A stretch of DNA of 64,000 nt from a virus. Lineage: Duplodnaviria > Heunggongvirae > Uroviricota > Caudoviricetes. The stretch lies in the IMG/VR virus record IMGVR_UViG_3300010882_000010; one strand, 5' to 3'. Positions 4,739 to 23,075 of the stretch are shown piece by piece; positions within the stretch are counted from its first letter, which is position 1, and each line of letters starts with the position of its first letter. The position numbers and the translations under genes are program-made. Below the pieces are notes generated by a model that ran no database searches, was not told the DNA's origin, and saw only the letters and a list, made by a program, of their open reading frames with translations.

Positions 4739-6787
4739 ATGTCACAAAATTGCGTACAAAGTTTTCCTACCGGTTCGGCACCAATGTTTCAAGGATTAAA
4801 TCCTAATAACAATAATGCAAATCAATTTAAGCCAGCTACTCTTAGTATTCCTGGTCAATTTGTTATTATTGAAAGTAACCAACTTTTTGTTAATGTTACA
4901 AGAATTAGAGGTTGGTCTGAAGAGGTTCAGGGATTAGGAACTTTGATTAAAGAATTCTCATGGTCTGTTGATAAATCCTCATGGTCTTATTGGACTCTTT
5001 TAACACAAGAGAATTTAGAAGCACTTTCAAATCGTAACATTTTACCAAAATCCGGTTTTTATTTTAGATTTCGTTACACTTTATCTTCAATAGGTAACAT
5101 AGTAATTTCAGGAGTTAAACTTAATGTTGAACAAAGTGCTACTGATACTAATTTAGGCTATGTTCCTCCTGGATTTTTTTGCGCGGAATTTGGATCTATG
5201 CAAGGTTCTATTCTAACTACTTGTGGTGGAAGCTTCAATCCCTACCTTATTAATCCTTGCAACGACATCCTACAACAACTTGCTTATGGTATTCAAAACA
5301 TGTTTGGTTTAGATTGTATCTACATGAGAGCAATACCGGATAAAAATTCTGCTGATGTTGTTTTTAAAGAATGGACTCTTTATTCAGTGGAAAATCCTGT
5401 TTGTACTAAAGTTTTAGTTCCTGATAATGAATTTCCGAGTTTTGATTTACAGTACAATCCATATGGAATTGAGTATGAATCTCCATTTGAAGTTCATATC
5501 GTAAAACAAAATTTTGAAGAACAATTTGGATTAGGTAAATTTCCACAACAAAGAGATATCCTCTTTTTTCCAATGTTTTCAGAACGTCTTTATGAAGTAA
5601 AATCTACTTCACCTGAGATGAATTTCCTTAGCCAGATGAGTTATTGGAAAGTTGATTTAATGATCTACAGAGCAAAAGCCAATACTTACGCTCCAGAAAG
5701 TATTCAAAACCTACTTGATGAAATTACAATGGATTCAGTTAAAGCTTTTGGTGCCGAAATGGAAAAAGAAACGTTGAAGATTACTAAACCACAACAATAC
5801 AATAGAAATATCGGTACTAATTTAATTGATCCTATCCGTAAGTACATCAATACTAATCTTAAAATTTTCTCTGTACCTGTTCAAAATCATGGTACAATAA
5901 TTTCAGATTCTCATTATGATTTAAGTTCTATCTTTGAACCGGATAAATCAATAGTAGGAGTTGAGTATGCACTTACTTCAAAATTCACAAAATTAGATAG
6001 TTTTGCTTTTTCATGTTGGTTTAAGGATAATAAGCCTAAATTTTTAATTCATGAAGATCCTGTTAGAATTGAAAAGATTTCGGATAGTGTTTTACGATTA
6101 AAATTGCAAGTAATTCGCAAATATCAAAAAGGTCAATATTTGCAGATATTTAGACAAGGTAAACTAAATTTCTATGGAAAAATTGTAGATGTACTTTCTG
6201 AATCTCAGTTTGATATCGAGGTAGAAAAAGAAGTTTTACAATATCTTGATTCTATTAATAATTCTTGGATTACAGCTCCAGGTTGGATTGCTAAAAGATG
6301 TTTCGAAAAAGTTTTCATGGATAGTTTGGTAGAGAAAGATAAAGAAATAAAGGGATGGAAAATTTCACAATTCGCGGAGCGATTTTTCATTCTTAATATC
6401 AATGGAAAGCAAATCTTCTTTAATACTCAAGAAAATACCGGTGATAAATGGAATGGACTATTTTTAAACTGGTCTCCAATTTTTAAACAACTTAATTTTT
6501 CTCTTTGGAAAATTAAAGATGGAGTACAAAATAACACACAATTAGAAGTAGTTTTTACTCAAACCATTGAAGATCTTGAATTTGAAGATTTTAATAGTGA
6601 AATTAATTACTTCTTACCAGCTAGCAATATCGCACTTACCAATTTAAGGATATTCAGCGAAATTGTACCATTTGAAAAACAAAGTTTGATATTGAACCAA
6701 AATATTGTGCAAGATTCACATCTTCTAATATTGGCAGATGACTCTAAGGTTAAGCACCGTCTTCCATTTGTTGGTTCTACAAAATAA
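4739..6787 (+). CDS. neck/head-completion protein (T4 gp14-like) with extra N- and C-terminal domains
   Basis: Central DCIYMRA..D.VFKE, FEVHIVKQNFEEQFG, PQQRDILFFPM..RLYEV as in gp14; beta-rich C-terminus. Confidence 0.7.
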   Translation: MSQNCVQSFPTGSAPMFQGLNPNNNNANQFKPATLSIPGQFVIIESNQLFVNVTRIRGWSEEVQGLGTLIKEFSWSVDKSSWSYWTLLTQENLEALSNRNILPKSGFYFRFRYTLSSIGNIVISGVKLNVEQSATDTNLGYVPPGFFCAEFGSMQGSILTTCGGSFNPYLINPCNDILQQLAYGIQNMFGLDCIYMRAIPDKNSADVVFKEWTLYSVENPVCTKVLVPDNEFPSFDLQYNPYGIEYESPFEVHIVKQNFEEQFGLGKFPQQRDILFFPMFSERLYEVKSTSPEMNFLSQMSYWKVDLMIYRAKANTYAPESIQNLLDEITMDSVKAFGAEMEKETLKITKPQQYNRNIGTNLIDPIRKYINTNLKIFSVPVQNHGTIISDSHYDLSSIFEPDKSIVGVEYALTSKFTKLDSFAFSCWFKDNKPKFLIHEDPVRIEKISDSVLRLKLQVIRKYQKGQYLQIFRQGKLNFYGKIVDVLSESQFDIEVEKEVLQYLDSINNSWITAPGWIAKRCFEKVFMDSLVEKDKEIKGWKISQFAERFFILNINGKQIFFNTQENTGDKWNGLFLNWSPIFKQLNFSLWKIKDGVQNNTQLEVVFTQTIEDLEFEDFNSEINYFLPASNIALTNLRIFSEIVPFEKQSLILNQNIVQDSHLLILADDSKVKHRLPFVGSTK

Positions 6788-6798
6788 TAACAAAAATC

Positions 6799-7536
6799 AT
6801 GAGTGATGATAAGAGTCCTAAAAAAAGAGGTCCAAAACCTGGTACAAAACCAGAAAGAAAACAACTTGAACCAGAAGAAAAAAGCAGACAACTTAAAGAA
6901 CGAAAAGAGCTTGAAGATTTAATCAAGTGTCAAGAAGAAAGTTTGATGACTTTAACAGAAGAGGCAAACAGTATACTACCAAAACAATGTGGCTTAAAGT
7001 TTGATAATGAACAAGCTACGTTAGTTGCAATTAGAGATTCGGCTGATATTGTTTCGGCAAATGCACAATTTTTCTTAGGAGATGAAGTTATTAAGGGCGA
7101 GCGTTACATCCAAGAGAAGATGAAAATTGATACTTTAATTGTTTCAGATCTCCGAAAAACTTCTATTATTTCAGATTGGTCTATTCTTAAGATGATTGAG
7201 AATATTGATGAAGGTAACAATCATCCAAGAGCTTACGAGGTTCTTAGTACACTACAAAAAACTAAGATGGATGTTTCTAAACTGTTAGCTCAGTATGTTA
7301 CTTCAATGGAAAACAACTACAAAAATATCAAAGAGGATTACAAAGTTAAGAAAAAAGAAGAAGCTTTGGAAGTTGAATTTTTAGAAGTAGATGGTACGCC
7401 TACAAAGAAAAATGGTGATGTTGTTTCAAGAGGTAGTAAAGATATGATTAGAAATCTTAGAATGGCAATGGATGAAATGGAAACAGAAGATGCTGAAGCT
7501 GAAATTGGTGAGATAGAAAAAATTGAAAACATCTAA
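6799..7536 (+). CDS. terS: terminase small subunit (T4 gp16-like)
   Basis: HPRAYEVLSTL motif, helical, directly upstream of terL. Confidence 0.75.
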   Translation: MSDDKSPKKRGPKPGTKPERKQLEPEEKSRQLKERKELEDLIKCQEESLMTLTEEANSILPKQCGLKFDNEQATLVAIRDSADIVSANAQFFLGDEVIKGERYIQEKMKIDTLIVSDLRKTSIISDWSILKMIENIDEGNNHPRAYEVLSTLQKTKMDVSKLLAQYVTSMENNYKNIKEDYKVKKKEEALEVEFLEVDGTPTKKNGDVVSRGSKDMIRNLRMAMDEMETEDAEAEIGEIEKIENI

Positions 7537-14401: not shown

Positions 14402-15163
14402 ATGTATATTTATAAAACAATAAATCTTATCAATAATAAAATTTATATAGGACAATCTATAAGAACTGTAGAAGAATCTAAAAATTACTTAGGTTCTGGT
14501 AAACCTTATTTTAATAATGCTTTAAAAAAGTATGGTAAAGAAAATTTTAAAAAAGAAATCTTAGAAATTTGTAATTCACAAGAAGAACTTAATGAAAGAG
14601 AACAATATTGGATTAAAGAATTAAATTCACAAGATAGAAATGTTGGATATAATATTAAGGATGGTGGATTAGGAGGAAAATTAGCAGAAGAAACTAAAGA
14701 AAAAATAAGTAATACTTTAAAAGGACGAAAAACATATAGAGAACCATGGAATAAAGGAAAACAGATGAGTATAGAATTTTGTGAAAAAGTATCATTATCT
14801 ATAAAAGGAAAATCAAAAAAGAAAATGTCGGAAGAAACAAAACAAAAATTAAGAGAAATTAATACTGGTAAAAAAGCAACAGATGAATCAAAATTTAAAA
14901 TGAGTTTAAAAGCAAGAGAAAATATAACACCAGAATTAAGACAAGTACGGTCTAATAATGTACAAGGTCAAAAAAATCCTATGTATAAAAAATCTATTTA
15001 TGATATATGGATTTTAACATATGGTAAAGAAAAAGCAGAAGAAATGTGGAAAAATAGATATAAATCAAAAATTGTAAAATGTCCTTGGTGTGAAAAAGAA
15101 GGAGAAAATAGAATTATGAAACGGTGGCATTTTAATAATTGTAAATATAATCCTAAAAATTAA
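14402..15163 (+). CDS. GIY-YIG homing endonuclease
   Basis: YIYKTINLINNKIYIGQ, YLGSG, EREQYWI, GYNI; C-terminal CPWC...WHFNNC. Confidence 0.92.
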   Translation: MYIYKTINLINNKIYIGQSIRTVEESKNYLGSGKPYFNNALKKYGKENFKKEILEICNSQEELNEREQYWIKELNSQDRNVGYNIKDGGLGGKLAEETKEKISNTLKGRKTYREPWNKGKQMSIEFCEKVSLSIKGKSKKKMSEETKQKLREINTGKKATDESKFKMSLKARENITPELRQVRSNNVQGQKNPMYKKSIYDIWILTYGKEKAEEMWKNRYKSKIVKCPWCEKEGENRIMKRWHFNNCKYNPKN

Positions 15164-15264
15164 ATAAAGAAAAAATTTAAGAAAATTGTTAGTAACTTTT
15201 TCTTGATACAGTAGTTCAGTAAAAGAAAAAGTGCTATTTTTACAGAAAATTTTATGGCAAACTG

Positions 15265-15293
15265 AAACTTTTTCAAATTGCCGCATAATAATG
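15265..15293 (+). promoter_or_regulatory. class B phage promoter
   Basis: AAACTTTT-N13-TAATAATG immediately before the structured RNA units. Confidence 0.7.
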
Positions 15294-15301
15294 AACTAAA
15301 A

Positions 15302-15350
15302 AGGAACCATACAGCAATTATTCGTGGCTTTTACGGACAAAGGTTCCTGT
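15302..15350 (+). ncRNA. candidate structured RNA unit 1
   Basis: Stem AGGAACC (15302-08) / GGTTCCT (15342-48) enclosing ATACAGCAAT and an inner hairpin; ends CCTGT. Confidence 0.6.
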
Positions 15351-15373
15351 AACGATTTTTACAGAGAAGGAAA

Positions 15374-15420
15374 AGGTTAGCAATTCAGCAATCAAAATTG
15401 GGAAAACAATGTTAACCTGT
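15374..15420 (+). ncRNA. candidate structured RNA unit 2
   Basis: Stem AGGTTAGCA (15374-82) / TGTTAACCT (15410-18) enclosing ATTCAGCAAT; ends CCTGT. Confidence 0.6.
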
Positions 15421-15429
15421 TAGATTTTT

Positions 15430-15477
15430 AATCCTTAGTTTTCGTTACTTGTTGTAATAGAAACTAAGGATTTTTTT
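15430..15477 (+). terminator. intrinsic terminator/attenuator upstream of the DUF2828-type gene
   Basis: AATCCTTAGTTT...AAACTAAGGATT followed by a T run. Confidence 0.7.
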
Positions 15478-15511
15478 AATTAATCGAATACTAACTAAAA
15501 ACAAAAACAAA

Positions 15512-16039
15512 ATGCAAACAAACGCACTTTTAAATGCAATGACTACAGCAGACACTTTTACAGAAAATGGATGCTTAACTAACTCAACAACTTCAAGTGA
15601 TTGTGTGGATTTGTTTTTCACAATTGGCGCTATGAGATCAAACAGAAATGACAAATCTAAAATGAGAGATTTAGTTACAATGTTTGACCGGGCTTTTGCC
15701 GAAAATCCTCTTGTAGCAATGAAAATTTTATTCTGGTCTCGTGACATCCGAGGTGGTGTAGGCGAACGTGAAATTTTCAGAAAAATTTGGAAACATATCA
15801 CAGATGGTAAGAATAACCAAAAATTGTTTCTTGCTAATATGGCTAACTTTCCTGAATATGGACGTTGGGATGATTTATTTGGCTTAATTACTAAAGATTC
15901 AGGTGTTGAAGATCAGATTATTGAGTACATAATTAAAACTTTAAAAAATTCAGATATAGCTAATTCTATTTTAGAAAAAATTGATGAAATGACAGAAGAA
16001 GAATGTGAAATAGAATTAAAAAAAGTTTATGGGATTTAA
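15512..16039 (+). CDS. DUF2828/TROVE(Ro60)-like protein, N-terminal fragment
   Basis: TENG...STT...CVDLFF.IGAMR, LFWSRDIRGGVGEREIFR, PEYGRWDDL. Confidence 0.85.
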   Translation: MQTNALLNAMTTADTFTENGCLTNSTTSSDCVDLFFTIGAMRSNRNDKSKMRDLVTMFDRAFAENPLVAMKILFWSRDIRGGVGEREIFRKIWKHITDGKNNQKLFLANMANFPEYGRWDDLFGLITKDSGVEDQIIEYIIKTLKNSDIANSILEKIDEMTEEECEIELKKVYGI

Positions 16040-17089
16040 TCTACATTTTTTTTCATGTTTACTTAAATTACCATTATCTTTGTAGGTTTTCCCACAAAAT
16101 CTACAATAAAGTTCTTTGATTTCTTGATTAGGATTTGCTAAACATTTTTTCTCGTGTTGTGTTTTAGCTTGAAGTAGATTAAATTCTTTGTTACAAAATT
16201 GACAATAAAAAAGTTTTCGATTAGGATTTAATTCACAAGATTTTTCATGATCATTTTTAACACGTAACATACTAAATTCTTTGTTACAAAATTGACAATA
16301 AAAAAGTTTTCGATTAGGATTTAATTCACATCTACTTTCATGAATACCACGTGCTCCGGGATTTCCACATATTTTGTAACAATATTGACATATACAATCA
16401 TTTTCAGTATAAGTAAATTTATACCAAGTACCTGTTTCTTTTTGTTTTTTCATAGATTCTTTGGCGCGTAGTGATCGTTTCTCTAAAATAGAATTATTAA
16501 CATTTGGATTCATAAGACAATTATTACCATGAAATTGTAAAAAATTACCAGGATCAAAAAATTCATTACAATATGGACATTGAATTTTTTCTGTATTAAT
16601 ACGAGCGTTGGAAATGTTATTACGTCGCTCATTTGTACATGGACCCATAGAAATTCCATTATTCCATGAAGGAGTGCCACGTCCAATAGTCCATCCATTA
16701 GGAATTTCATAATCTTTATTATGCCAATGGGCTGAAATTTTACCATCAATTTCTTTAAAAATCAAAACTTTATTATCGTGTGAAAAAATTCCAGATCCAC
16801 GTCCGTAACATTTATTGAAAAATTTTTCACTTTTTACAGCATCATGATTAATTAAGTATTCATACTCATATCGTAAGGCATCTTCTTTAGATGAAAAAGT
16901 ACTTAAAATTTCATATGTAAAACAATCAATTCCATAATTTTTAATCAATTTATGGATAATATCTGAAGAAGTGAAGTATTTTTTCCAAAAATCTGTTGGA
17001 TGACAATTTTTAGCAAATCTAATACCACAATAAAGTTGTCCGGTTGGAATAAAAGTTAATAAGTAACAATAAGGTATTCTATCTTTCAT
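16016..17089 (-). CDS. Seg-like GIY-YIG endonuclease with C-terminal zinc-finger repeats
   Basis: PYCYLL...GQLYCGIR..YFTSS, YEYEYL, FFNK; four CxxC...H...C repeats. Confidence 0.8.
   Translation of the reverse strand: MKDRIPYCYLLTFIPTGQLYCGIRFAKNCHPTDFWKKYFTSSDIIHKLIKNYGIDCFTYEILSTFSSKEDALRYEYEYLINHDAVKSEKFFNKCYGRGSGIFSHDNKVLIFKEIDGKISAHWHNKDYEIPNGWTIGRGTPSWNNGISMGPCTNERRNNISNARINTEKIQCPYCNEFFDPGNFLQFHGNNCLMNPNVNNSILEKRSLRAKESMKKQKETGTWYKFTYTENDCICQYCYKICGNPGARGIHESRCELNPNRKLFYCQFCNKEFSMLRVKNDHEKSCELNPNRKLFYCQFCNKEFNLLQAKTQHEKKCLANPNQEIKELYCRFCGKTYKDNGNLSKHEKKCRLNPINFF
16180..16330. repeat. 58-bp perfect direct repeat, 93-bp period (zinc-finger duplication)
   Basis: 16180-16237 identical to 16273-16330; encodes CELNPNRKLFYCQFCNKEF twice. 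Confidence 0.9.
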
Positions 17090-17100
17090 TATAATACTCT

Positions 17101-17116
17101 TTTTACTATTTATTCT
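17101..17116 (-). promoter_or_regulatory. class A phage promoter driving the antisense endonuclease
   Basis: Reverse complement reads AGAATAAATAGTAAAA, 11 nt before the ATG. Confidence 0.7.
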
Positions 17117-17215
17117 AATTATTTTTAAAATTTTTAACTTTTAGTAAGTGGTTATCAAGAATAAGAGGAAAAGTATGATAAACAATTATAATAACAATTA
17201 AAAACTAAGATACTT

Positions 17216-18292
17216 ATGACAAACAAACAGTTATTAAAACAAAAACTAAATGAAGATGTATTACTCGCCGAAACATTATCAAAATGGTTACCTAGATTAG
17301 GTGGAAAAGTTTCTAAGGAAGACAAACTTATTGCAAACAAAATTAGAGTTGCAATGGAACTTTCTCCAGCAGATTATCGTAAGTACATCGTTGCTAAAAC
17401 TAAAGTAGTAGAAACAGCAATGTGTCAAAAAGAATGGGGTAGAATTGATTATGAACATGTACCATCAGTTGCGATGTCTCGTTACATGAAAGCTTTTGGT
17501 AAAAACGATGGAATTAGATTTACAGAATACGTGCAATCTGTTCAAAAAGGTGAAAAAGTAATGCATGCAAGTGCTACTTATCCATATGATATTATTCGCG
17601 CTTTAAGAAATTGTAGTAATCCTGATGCCGCAAATGCACAATGGTTGCAATTACCTAACTATTTGGAAGGTAATAAAGAATCTATTATGCCAATGGTTGA
17701 TGTTTCGGGTTCTATGGATAGCAAAGTTTCTGGAAGTATTACAGCAATGGATATTTCAATTTCTTTGGGAATTTATGTAGCAGAAAGAATGGAAGGACCG
17801 TTTAGAGATCATTTCATTACTTTCACAAGTGAACCAAAGTTACAAAGATTAACCGGAAGCTTATCTTCAAGATTACAACAAATTAAAGGACCTGTTGGAT
17901 ATGATACAAATATCGAAGCAGCTTTTAGAATGTTGTTAGATTGTGCTATTAAAGGTAATGTACCTCAATCTGAAATGCCTACAAAAATAATGATTATATC
18001 GGACATGGAATTTAATAATTCTTGTATTAGTGGACATGATGTAACAGCTATGTCAAAGATAAACAGTCTTTATGAAGCAGCCGGATACAAAAGACCTGAT
18101 ATTATTTTCTGGAAAGTAAACGTTCTTTCTATGGAAAATTGCCCTGTAAAACATGATGCAGAGGGTACATGCTTAGTTTCGGGATTTTCCCCAAGTATTT
18201 TGACATCATTGCTTGGTGGTGAAATGACTCCAATGAAAATTTTGGAAAAAACTATCAACAATCCAAGATATGATAAAGTAGTTCTTGGATAA
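17216..18292 (+). CDS. DUF2828/TROVE-like protein, C-terminal fragment with vWA domain
   Basis: SKWLPR, YRK...VVETAMC..W..IDYEHVPSVAM, MIDAS DVSGSM, IISDMEF, VSGFSP. Confidence 0.88.
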   Translation: MTNKQLLKQKLNEDVLLAETLSKWLPRLGGKVSKEDKLIANKIRVAMELSPADYRKYIVAKTKVVETAMCQKEWGRIDYEHVPSVAMSRYMKAFGKNDGIRFTEYVQSVQKGEKVMHASATYPYDIIRALRNCSNPDAANAQWLQLPNYLEGNKESIMPMVDVSGSMDSKVSGSITAMDISISLGIYVAERMEGPFRDHFITFTSEPKLQRLTGSLSSRLQQIKGPVGYDTNIEAAFRMLLDCAIKGNVPQSEMPTKIMIISDMEFNNSCISGHDVTAMSKINSLYEAAGYKRPDIIFWKVNVLSMENCPVKHDAEGTCLVSGFSPSILTSLLGGEMTPMKILEKTINNPRYDKVVLG

Positions 18293-18327
18293 TTAAAACG
18301 GTTTGCAGACCGATACCGAAAAAAGTA

Positions 18328-18372
18328 AAACTTTTTGGACCGTTTGTGTAATAATAGCACAAACGGTTTTTT
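18328..18372 (+). promoter_or_regulatory. class B promoter overlapped by a terminator-like hairpin
   Basis: AAACTTTT-N13-TAATAATA with the TAATAATA box in the loop of ACCGTTTGTG/CACAAACGGT plus T tract. Confidence 0.65.
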
Positions 18373-18375
18373 ATT

Positions 18376-18570
18376 ATGATTTTAAATTGGTTTTTTGCTT
18401 TTTGCTTACTTGGTATTTTAAGTGCCGGCGTTTTTGGAATTTCGAATGATTTTCTTTGTAATAATTCTAAAGGAGCTGAAATTGCTACCTTAATTTCGGG
18501 ATTTAGTATGATTTTAAGTCAACTAGGAATAATAGTATTAATAATTTTGGAAATAATTTCTTTATGGTAA
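18376..18570 (+). CDS. small two-helix membrane protein
   Basis: Two hydrophobic segments in 64 aa. Confidence 0.6.
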   Translation: MILNWFFAFCLLGILSAGVFGISNDFLCNNSKGAEIATLISGFSMILSQLGIIVLIILEIISLW

Positions 18571-19181
18571 TTTTAGAAGAGTTAAAGGAAATTTTAGGTA
18601 ATGAAGAAAAAGTAATCAATTTTGAAACTGTTAAAGTTGATGATACTTTTTTAAGGCCTAGCAAGATTAAGTTTCTTTCAGATGTTTCTTACCTTAATAG
18701 TAGATATTATGATTTTAGTTGGGATTATTCTAATGAAGCACTTAGAATTACAGTAGATGATATCAATTATCATTTATTGGAACTTAATGTAGTTGAAAGG
18801 TTTAGAGTAATAACTGAATATCAGTATGAAGATAGAAATTTTTTGTTTTTTCATTGGAGAAAGAAAGTAGGACAAACAACAAATGAAGATGCTTGTAAAA
18901 AACTCTTAGAGAAAATTAAGACTGATATTGAAGAAAAGAACAAGCATATCAAAATTGATATTAAGAAATGGTTTAGTAATAAAGATAATGCACTTTATTA
19001 TGGATTTAAGGTAAAGACCTATCTCATTAGTAAACAACAAGTTGGAAGTTACAAAACGGAATTACAAGAAGTTTCAATTTTTGATTTGAAAAGTTTGAAA
19101 AGAGAAAACAAGAAAAAGCAATTAAAAGAGAAGCAACAATTAATTGACAAAAAATTAGAAAATTTTTTAGCATGGCTATGA
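18564..19181 (+). CDS. hypothetical protein
   Basis: 205-aa ORF in an overlapping gene run. Confidence 0.6.
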   Translation: MVILEELKEILGNEEKVINFETVKVDDTFLRPSKIKFLSDVSYLNSRYYDFSWDYSNEALRITVDDINYHLLELNVVERFRVITEYQYEDRNFLFFHWRKKVGQTTNEDACKKLLEKIKTDIEEKNKHIKIDIKKWFSNKDNALYYGFKVKTYLISKQQVGSYKTELQEVSIFDLKSLKRENKKKQLKEKQQLIDKKLENFLAWL

Positions 19182-21830: not shown

Positions 21831-23075
21831 ATGATTTTATCAGAACAACACATCATTAAACAATCAAATCCTCTTTATCAAGAGTTAGATATGTTGTGTT
21901 TTTTATCTAAAAATCTTTACAATTCAGCTCTTTATTCTGTACGTCAACATTATTTTGAAACAGGTAAATATCTAGGAAAGTTTGAATTGATTAAAAAGTT
22001 TGTTAAAGAAAAACAAGTTGATTATTATGCTTTACCTACTAAAGTGGCTACATGTGTACTTTTTCAAGTAGATCAAAACATGAAATCATTTTTTACACTT
22101 TTAAAGTTAAAACAAAAAGGACAATATCAACAACAAGTTAAATTACCTAAGTATCTTAAAAAAGATGGAAGAAACATAGGGATATTTCCAGAAGATGGAA
22201 TTTCAGGAAAAGAATTAAAGAAAGGAATTATCAAATTCGGTGGAATAGAAATTAACAAAAAATTTGTTTCATTAGTTAAAGGAACTATCAAAACCAAACA
22301 ACAAAAGGTTCAACAAGTTCGTATTATTCCTAAAAACGGATACTATACTGTAGAAGTGCTTTACAAAGTAGAATCAAAATCTAAACTACAAGACAATCAA
22401 AAATACTTATCAATTGATTTAGGCATAAACAACTTAGCAACTTTAACTTCTAATGTAACTAAACCTATCATAGTAAACGGAAGACCTGTAAAGAGTATTA
22501 ACCAATACTTTAACAAAACTAAAGCAAAACTCTCTTCACAATTAGAAACAGTAAACAAAACTAAATCATCAAAAAGAACTCAATCTTTATCCTTAAAGAG
22601 AAACAATAAAATCAAAGATTACTTTCACAAGACATCTAGATTCATAGTGAATCATGCAATTTCTAACGACCTTAATACTATAATTATCGGTAAGAATCAA
22701 GGCTGGAAACAAGACACAAATCTAGGTAGAGTTAATAATCAAAAGTTTGTTTCAATTCCATTTAACAATTTAATTCAAATGATAAGTTACAAAGCTGAAT
22801 TACAAGGAATTAAAGTTATTGTAAGAGAAGAAAGTTACACAAGCCAAGCAAGTTTCTTGGATGGAGATTTCATACCAAAGTATGGAGATAAGGATATTAA
22901 GGAATTTAGTGGAAAGAGGATTAAAAGAGGTCTCTACCAGACTAAAAATGGTAGATTAATTAATGCTGATGTTAACGGAAGTTTAAACATCATGAAAAAA
23001 GAAGTTTCAAATGCTTTTGTGATAGAAAGATATGGAATAGAGGTGTGTGATACGCCATTAGTTGTAGGATTCTAG
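21831..23075 (+). CDS. tnpB: TnpB RNA-guided nuclease (IS200/IS605/IS607 OrfB family), no tnpA adjacent
   Basis: SKNLYN N-terminus, RuvC-I SIDLGINNLA, IIIGKNQGWKQ, REESYTS, RuvC-III NADVNGSLNI. Confidence 0.92.
   Translation: MILSEQHIIKQSNPLYQELDMLCFLSKNLYNSALYSVRQHYFETGKYLGKFELIKKFVKEKQVDYYALPTKVATCVLFQVDQNMKSFFTLLKLKQKGQYQQQVKLPKYLKKDGRNIGIFPEDGISGKELKKGIIKFGGIEINKKFVSLVKGTIKTKQQKVQQVRIIPKNGYYTVEVLYKVESKSKLQDNQKYLSIDLGINNLATLTSNVTKPIIVNGRPVKSINQYFNKTKAKLSSQLETVNKTKSSKRTQSLSLKRNNKIKDYFHKTSRFIVNHAISNDLNTIIIGKNQGWKQDTNLGRVNNQKFVSIPFNNLIQMISYKAELQGIKVIVREESYTSQASFLDGDFIPKYGDKDIKEFSGKRIKRGLYQTKNGRLINADVNGSLNIMKKEVSNAFVIERYGIEVCDTPLVVGF

Follow-up and report, generated by a model that had tools for sequence, protein, structure and literature searches.

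The stretch of DNA analysed here, referred to as the window, comprises 64,000 nt of the 217.7-kb uncultured virus record IMGVR_UViG_3300010882_000010, a phage in which terminase and baseplate genes are present and whose near-identical DNA was found in termite-gut metagenome runs. Among the public runs listed for this DNA none is of RNA. Between positions 15512 and 18292 the window carries a gene for a Ro60-like protein, that is, one built of a TROVE and a vWA domain, in two pieces, and a homing-endonuclease gene lies antisense between them. Both pieces bear short extra tails at the break. We propose, with a probability of about 0.75, that a homing-endonuclease cassette with its own selected tails has split this gene, and that the halves reassemble non-covalently without splicing.

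Three open reading frames (ORFs) make up the locus, at 15512..16039 (+, 175 aa), 16016..17089 (-, 357 aa) and 17216..18292 (+, 358 aa), of which the first two converge and overlap by 24 nt. A preliminary description of this DNA had given the same overlap and had read the locus as a gene split by a free-standing antisense homing endonuclease; the ORFs and the family matches agree with it. The principal parts are the following.

15512..15949, + strand: core of the N half (residues 1-146), a Ro60-like TROVE domain; phrog_850 positions 5-136, Pfam DUF2828 positions 1-73; aligns with intact homologues through ...IIKTLKN
15950..16039, + strand: N tail (residues 147-175, SDIANSILEKIDEMTEEECEIELKKVYGI) and its TAA stop, acidic, cassette-encoded; absent in intact alleles
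16016..17089, - strand: free-standing GIY-YIG homing endonuclease gene, 357 aa; Pfam PF19835 (SegE_GIY-YIG, 37 bits), then C2H2-type zinc fingers; phrog_314
17216..17269, + strand: C head (residues 1-18, MTNKQLLKQKLNEDVLLA), cassette-encoded, with its own ATG; absent in intact alleles
17270..18292, + strand: core of the C half, the rest of the TROVE domain and the vWA domain with the metal-ion-dependent adhesion site (MIDAS) motif DVSGS; phrog_850 positions 139-475, Pfam DUF2828 positions 291-369 and DUF7788/VWA (DUF7788 E 4e-40)

Because the N half leaves phrog_850 (476 positions) at position 136 and the C half re-enters it at 139, the cut is clean and no part of the gene has been lost. In intact proteins the YGRWDD and KW(L/M)PR motifs are separated by 33–34 aa (G114 to K151 of the intact locus L003), close to the 30 aa or so of the preliminary description. 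Its further statement that the N half ends just after YGRWDDL has to be corrected: the protein runs on for 53 aa, of which some 24–26 are ordinary core residues and the last 28–29 (147–175) form the extra tail. Both junctions are spanned without differences by contigs from independent termite-gut runs, and the arrangement is therefore no assembly artefact. No cassette-free joint over 16000–17200 was seen among the metagenome DNA contigs examined, and a megablast search of the region against GenBank phages returned no match.

The nature of the host gene was established with the nearest intact homologue, L003 (~60% identical), for which AlphaFold2 gave a model with a predicted local distance difference test score (pLDDT) of 84 and a predicted template modelling score of 0.80. 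In a Foldseek search this model matched Ro60/TROVE structures, including the Ro60 of Thermus phage phiLo (E 2e-9 to 2e-6, template modelling score 0.5–0.6), and its C-terminal part matched vWA domains. The sequence identity to solved Ro60 structures is 11–15%. From the two-domain structural match we conclude that the host gene encodes a phage Ro60-like ring protein. The cut point falls in a five-residue loop of the model (141–145), between helices 128–140 and 146–151. Across 67 intact alleles 111 columns are at least 97% conserved, and the split alleles retain 102–111 of these, MIDAS included; moreover, all 11 diverged split alleles have open reading frames. By this count both halves are still constrained in the split alleles.

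Directly upstream of the gene, at 15265–15480, is a tandem pair of RNA-like stem-loop units (fold z-score -3.6), and a strong terminator hairpin comes after them. In both, (A)CAGCAA(T) stands just within the 5' arm and CCTGT at the 3' end; these motifs recur before the intact L003 gene (L003 5730–5890), where the stems differ in sequence. Rfam yielded no match to these units and no Y RNA in 15000–18800. They may be Y-RNA-like partners of the Ro60-like protein. The likeness to Ro60/Rsr and its Y RNAs (PDB 9l5y, 2i91, 1yvp) consists of the two-domain model match, the MIDAS and the small structured RNA genes upstream, whereas the present protein differs in being in two pieces, with the low identity given above and with an RNA binding that is putative.

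Presence, selection and mobility of the tails

A search of IMG/VR with the N-half alignment returned 80 loci. In 72 of them one ORF runs over the cut point, two end at a contig edge before the C part, and six (L004–L009) show precisely the split of the window, an antisense endonuclease homologue being present in every one (tblastn E 1e-46 to 1e-53). Searching IMG/VR with the endonuclease added the split loci L086, L091, L092 and L093, as well as L088, which duplicates L007. Thus, split and endonuclease are common to 11 loci, in the window and ten other uncultured phages, and the tails of these loci are homologous.

The 67 intact proteins read ...LI..AL..-(K/D)NGLCAKWMPR across the cut point, and it is exactly there that the 11 split alleles add ~50 residues. 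Alignment with unsplit homologues had been named beforehand in the preliminary description as the comparison that could overturn its proposal. The alignment (seven split and 20 intact alleles) shows both tails to be extra, and the 67 intact homologues have neither the ~29-aa acidic N tail nor the ~18-aa basic C head. Over the split loci the N tail measures 28–30 aa and the C head 17–24 aa. The former carries the motif.KA..IL..(I/L)D.(L/M)(S/T)EE(E/D)C..(I/L)L.. followed by the stop, conserved in the 11 loci, and the latter the conserved pattern M..K..LK.LL...(I)MT.

Tailed N halves are also found in far larger protein sets. A collection of 5.8 billion proteins holds ~50 short tail-bearing N halves, and among the best 150 matches of a profile search of 1.84 billion representatives there are ~30 tail-bearing clusters at 50% identity, while the tail occurs in none of the long proteins. 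Searching longer proteins with the tail alone found nothing either, which is weak evidence. One protein, P0109, that had appeared in the profile search as a long tailed protein is an ordinary intact protein instead. In the intact homologue P0165 (520 aa) the very loop used by the cassette holds an insert of ~30 aa of unrelated sequence (…AAIVMESHIQANNMEDFEKDHAKNLVLKGM…), and this loop therefore tolerates insertions. It is conceivable, but not supported, that the insert is a healed former split.

How the tails have changed argues for selection on the peptide. As pairwise identities over the window and L004–L009, codon positions 1/2/3 give 0.53/0.66/0.40 in the N tail and 0.52/0.57/0.43 in the C head, alongside 0.64/0.78/0.42 in the N-half core and 0.63/0.73/0.42 in the C-half core. 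This is a coding type of pattern, so the tails are neither an RNA element nor a product of drift. The overlap with the endonuclease gene, 14–59 nt in the other loci except L005, leaves the conserved part of the N tail outside it in most loci, and in L005 the N tail is conserved although the overlap is absent. Judged by these comparisons, the tails are shown to be coding sequence selected at the peptide level. In L005, 345 nt (6481–6825) separate the stop of the N half from that of the endonuclease.

The two tails differ in charge. In the window the N tail has a net charge of -6 and an isoelectric point (pI) of 4.1, and the C head a net charge of +1 and a pI of 8.3. N tails have a pI of 4.1–4.8 in 10 of the 11 loci, the exception being L092 (pI 6.3), and C heads range from 8.3 to 10.2, with 9.7–10.2 in nine of the ten relatives, such that the acid/base contrast is retained in 10 of the 11 loci. 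The acidic tail and the basic head of the preliminary description are thereby borne out in part: the former is plain in the window, the latter weak there and clear in the relatives. Its helical tails agree with the AlphaFold2 model of the N half (pLDDT 79, and ~83 across most of the tail), in which the last core helix is prolonged (133–159), a turn follows at M160–T161, and a second helix spans 162–173. The latter contains a Cys (C165 in the window, nt 16004–16006, …SEEEC…) that at least 90% of the 20 diverged N halves compared have in common and that may serve packing, the sole explanation offered; the C heads have no conserved Cys.

The endonuclease itself matches PF19835 at 37 bits against a cut-off of 25 bits, and phrog_314 as well. 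The conserved GIY-YIG residues Y9, Y20, G22, R24, E75 and N92 are invariant in seven homologues, and a homologous endonuclease occupies the same place in all ten other split loci. All close relatives of the endonuclease sit in this same split gene, and the more distant ones (L094–L097) are ordinary intergenic endonucleases that split no gene. In L093 (3501–4294) the endonuclease frame shifts after about residue 103 and both halves and their tails are intact, which may reflect decay of the endonuclease with the split kept, or a sequencing error.

Whether the tails belong to the host gene or to the endonuclease can be judged from how the two have diverged. On a tree of the host protein (78 rows, tail columns removed) the nearest relative of every split allele is an intact allele, and the 11 split alleles need 11 state changes, at least nine of which are forced by well-supported branches. 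Between L009 and L093 the endonucleases are 93% identical, the tails 81% and the cores 66%; between L009 and L092 the values are 80, 60 and 62%. As endonuclease and tails can be far more alike than the host genes, the tails belong to the mobile cassette. In addition, the closest pair of a split and an intact locus, L091 and L048, has a DNA identity of 0.78 beside the cassette and of 0.93–1.0 at 400–900 nt, a gradient such as co-conversion during homing would give. Taken as comparative evidence, these data show a mobile cassette whose tails move along with the endonuclease.

Proposed reassembly of the halves and the alternatives

The sequence of events that we favour is as follows. A mobile cassette would enter a phage Ro60-like (TROVE plus vWA) gene where it encodes a short surface loop, bringing, in this order, ~29 codons and a stop that extend the N half, the antisense GIY-YIG/zinc-finger gene, a short control region, and an ATG with ~18 codons at the head of the C half. 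The halves would be translated separately and most likely reassemble non-covalently into the normal Ro60-like ring. With the acidic helix-turn-helix of the N tail and the basic helical C head the cassette most likely mends the break that it makes. The two tails may hold or orient the cut ends, like a nicked helical hairpin inserted in the loop; alternatively, they may restore an assembly step, as in NrdA-a/NrdA-b of Aeromonas phage Aeh1, whose nrdA gene is split into nrdA-a and nrdA-b by insertion of mobE (Crona et al. 2011, PMC3045599). Cleavage by the endonuclease would presumably hit intact alleles of co-infecting relatives, near the conserved coding sequence for ...NGLCAKWMPR..., and repair would then copy the whole cassette, tails included.

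Several points weigh against this interpretation. The association of the halves, the contact between the tails, the role of the tails and the cleavage target are what we infer rather than observe, and joining at the RNA level by a process of unknown kind is excluded by inference only. The charge contrast is weak in two loci, with a net charge of 0 in the L092 N tail and of +1 in the window C head. On the host tree the scatter of split alleles does not separate gains from losses, and the co-conversion-like gradient comes from one pair of loci only. Divergence of the endonuclease and of the host gene is correlated overall (rho 0.73), which implies that the association is old and largely vertical, with transfers occasional. 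Finally, the Aeh1 tails are dispensable for the a/b heterodimer and required for the dimer of heterodimers (PMC3045599); 'docking' may therefore be the wrong picture.

This last fact also feeds the alternative that survives best, although we regard it as unlikely: that reassembly proceeds via the native Ro60-like interface alone, the tails being kept for capping or solubilising the helix ends, for a higher-order contact (a Ro60 dimer or RNA), or as stop, start or expression signals. It gains from the position of the cut, as the loop is short and joins two helices of a well-packed repeat domain, a setting in which fragments often complement each other unaided, and from the two loci with weak charge contrast. 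What speaks for a function of the peptides instead is that amino-acid conservation, amphipathic pattern and acid/base contrast persist over endonucleases only 43–48% identical. Furthermore, both tails flank the same loop and must therefore lie side by side.

Much further down we place the idea that the split gene is inactivated, or that its halves do separate jobs, the tails being conserved merely as part of a selfish cassette. Nothing direct favours it, and it has to contend with the conserved columns kept in both halves, MIDAS included, with the eleven diverged split alleles that are all open, and with the retention of the candidate partner RNA genes upstream.

As for splicing, Rfam detected no intron in 15000–18800 at E values up to 10, nor in ten related loci at gathering thresholds, and Pfam found no intein in the ORFs of the split gene. 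The tails are far below the length of a HINT domain, and the residues expected at intein junctions are absent, there being no Cys or Ser at the first tail residue and no HN followed by Cys, Ser or Thr at the C junction. The C half has a conserved ATG of its own. In agreement with the preliminary description, which had argued for neither intron nor intein, the two halves thus appear to be translated separately, with neither RNA nor protein splicing. An unrecognised element that rejoins the gene, such as a split intein that has degenerated or an intron of a novel kind with its endonuclease gene in antisense, can call on the fractured phage genes in which an endonuclease lies between split-intein halves (PMC2677866) and on the nearly invariant Cys of the N tail, yet it is the least credible of the explanations in view of the short tails without junction residues, the lack of an intein match in Pfam, the lack of an intron match in Rfam over 11 loci, the codon-type conservation of both tails and the conserved ATG.

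The putative control region and the target copy

Between the endonuclease start and the C-half start lies a divergent region in which a copy of the nearby coding sequence is found. The features concerned, with the finger array of the endonuclease and a hairpin after the C half, are these.

16032..16349, - strand: tandem 93-nt units encoding extra C2H2-type fingers at the endonuclease C-terminus; repeat search
17090..17215, no strand assigned: divergent intergenic region from endonuclease start to C-half start, presumably with the promoter(s)
17146..17174, + strand: copy of the K-W-L-P-R-L-G-G-K codons (AAGTGGTTATCAAGAATAAGAGGAAAAGT), either mimic or relic of the target; candidate operator
17282..17296, + strand: real K-W-L-P-R codons (AAATGGTTACCTAGA), probably part of the endonuclease recognition site; the most conserved DNA beside the insertion point
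18337..18369, + strand: terminator-like hairpin and T run, 3' of the C half; terminator scan

In the relatives the region between endonuclease and C half is 44–290 nt long; within it two boxes are conserved, one being the target copy and the other an AT box, AATAAATAT. The 11-mer AAGTGGATGCC is exact in nine loci, at 10–21 nt from the endonuclease ATG, and the remaining region is not conserved. In L007 the 11-mer is inverted and reads AAA as in that locus's own gene. The corresponding coding stretch, AA(A/G)TGGATGCCNCG, is nearly invariant in the 67 intact alleles. The window copy (17146–17174) is longer: it matches the window's own gene at 17282–17310 in register at 22–23 of 29 nt and shares lineage-specific codons with it (TGG TTA ... 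AGA ... GGA AAA GT) that the intact L003 lacks. In L086 and L091 the third base of the Lys codon does not co-vary in this way.

We consider the target copy a candidate operator like that of I-TevI, the other reading being that it is a worn duplicate of the target. A functional DNA site is favoured because the copy is exact although the endonucleases differ by 30–45%, and because a flipped copy occurs in L007. The extended copy in the window implies that duplication or gene conversion from the real site occurs as well. The 11-mer presumably belongs to the recognition site of the endonuclease. On this basis, the cassette could be a self-neutralising element that combines two complementary peptide adaptors, expression signals for the C half, and the target copy as an operator for self-repression. 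We put this forward tentatively, at somewhat less than even odds. On that view the operator would have stayed unchanged in nine diverged cassettes, would function both ways round (L007) and would keep in step with the local allele (the window), and the two tails would be a split-protein complementation pair that evolved in nature.

The signals for expression can be described less closely. In most loci the AT box comes after the target copy; it may serve one or both of the divergent genes as a promoter, and the C half would have a separate promoter. A sigma-70 scan gave 20 hits as compared with 18.5 in shuffled sequence and is uninformative in such AT-rich DNA; the degenerate class B promoter claimed at 17135 in the preliminary description was neither confirmed nor rejected. 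A 13-mer, TTAAGTGGATGCC, was considered as a general promoter box of the phage and discarded, with nine matches in the window against 13 expected. The scan for terminators over 15200–18600 gave no site other than the one listed, and none on the + strand between the halves.

The finger array consists of four in-register copies at a spacing of 93–99 nt (repeat families D1/D2). The endonucleases of the relatives have none or one such finger, and the expansion is hence specific to the window; metagenome contigs break at this repeat. The 93-nt units escaped Tandem Repeats Finder and were detected by a separate repeat search.

Two other genes of mobile elements were observed in the neighbourhood. 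One gene upstream, at 14402–15163 (+), lies a second, unrelated free-standing homing endonuclease gene of the GIY-YIG plus NUMOD3 type (phrog_314, E 2e-43), where read depth and variant contigs at 14530–14660 suggest related copies elsewhere or in other strains. Further downstream, a 414-aa ORF at 21831–23075 matches a transposase family (phrog_506, E 3e-51).

Comparison with known systems

The closest precedent is the nrdA/mobE locus of phage Aeh1. There, too, two ORFs are translated, the endonuclease is free-standing and neither intron nor intein is involved, and short tails of opposite charge, at a C- and an N-terminus, came with the insertion and are missing in unsplit relatives. These Aeh1 tails are cassette-derived and essential; the authors proposed that they neutralise the insertion, and predicted that similar tails have been overlooked elsewhere, for example in T4 gp39 and gp60 (PMC3045599). 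The docking idea of the preliminary description is accordingly less new than it implied. Its likeness to the docking domains of polyketide synthases and non-ribosomal peptide synthetases holds as a functional analogy and not as a family assignment, as Pfam gave no match beyond DUF2828, DUF7788 and VWA at E <= 0.01.

The two cases differ in several respects. First, the host gene encodes a ribonucleotide reductase in Aeh1 and a Ro60-like protein here. Second, the Aeh1 endonuclease is of the HNH type and on the same strand, whereas the present one is a GIY-YIG enzyme, antisense and convergent with the N half. Third, the charge polarity is reversed, the N tail being acidic and the C head basic in our case. 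Fourth, Aeh1 is a single case, while the present cassette recurs with homologous tails in 11 or more loci and some 30 protein clusters, which makes it possible to see that the tails are selected and move together with the endonuclease; on the other hand, the function of the tails is proven there and putative here. Aeh1 NrdA has so far been an isolated laboratory case of an endonuclease that brings tails making its own insertion harmless. To this the cassette adds comparative evidence, namely the same tails under purifying selection in many diverged phages, moving with the endonuclease and, in the loci compared, occurring only where the gene is broken. It also offers a natural, diverse set of short acidic and basic helices for studying split-protein reassembly. 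With two small proteins and a candidate RNA partner, whether a Ro60-like ring can function when divided becomes a tractable question.

The topoisomerase split of T4 (gp39/mobA/gp60) resembles both cases, in that an essential gene is divided by the insertion of an endonuclease gene and tail-like extensions of contrasting charge are found on both products (PMC3045599, PMC2988022). It differs in that gene 60 also has a 50-nt translational bypass; the function of the tails is putative there too.

Another group is formed by the fractured genes of Dassa et al. (2009, PMC2677866), in which split inteins have a free-standing endonuclease between their halves. Common to them and to the present locus are a phage gene broken in two, an endonuclease of the GIY-YIG or another type in between, and an ORF overlap with a neighbour; control elements arrive with the endonuclease, and electrostatic complementarity of the added pieces has been proposed (PMC2677866). 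However, the split-intein halves ligate the protein and the three ORFs are on one strand, in contrast to the short non-intein tails and antisense endonuclease described here.

Last, the target copy recalls the autorepression operator of I-TevI, in the form in which it is recounted in PMC2988022 after Edgell et al. (2004): a sequence like the homing site just upstream of the ORF, matching at 15 of 20 nt. The copy in the present cassettes likewise lies upstream of a GIY-YIG ORF and matches at 11 of 11 nt, or at 22–23 of 29 nt in the window. As far as that account goes, the difference is that the endonuclease here is free-standing and not intron-encoded, and that its operator is a candidate that may be a worn duplicate. 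Such an operator could extend I-TevI-style autoregulation to free-standing endonucleases and, if true, the present enzyme would be the first of these shown to join an I-TevI-like operator with repair of the host gene at the protein level.

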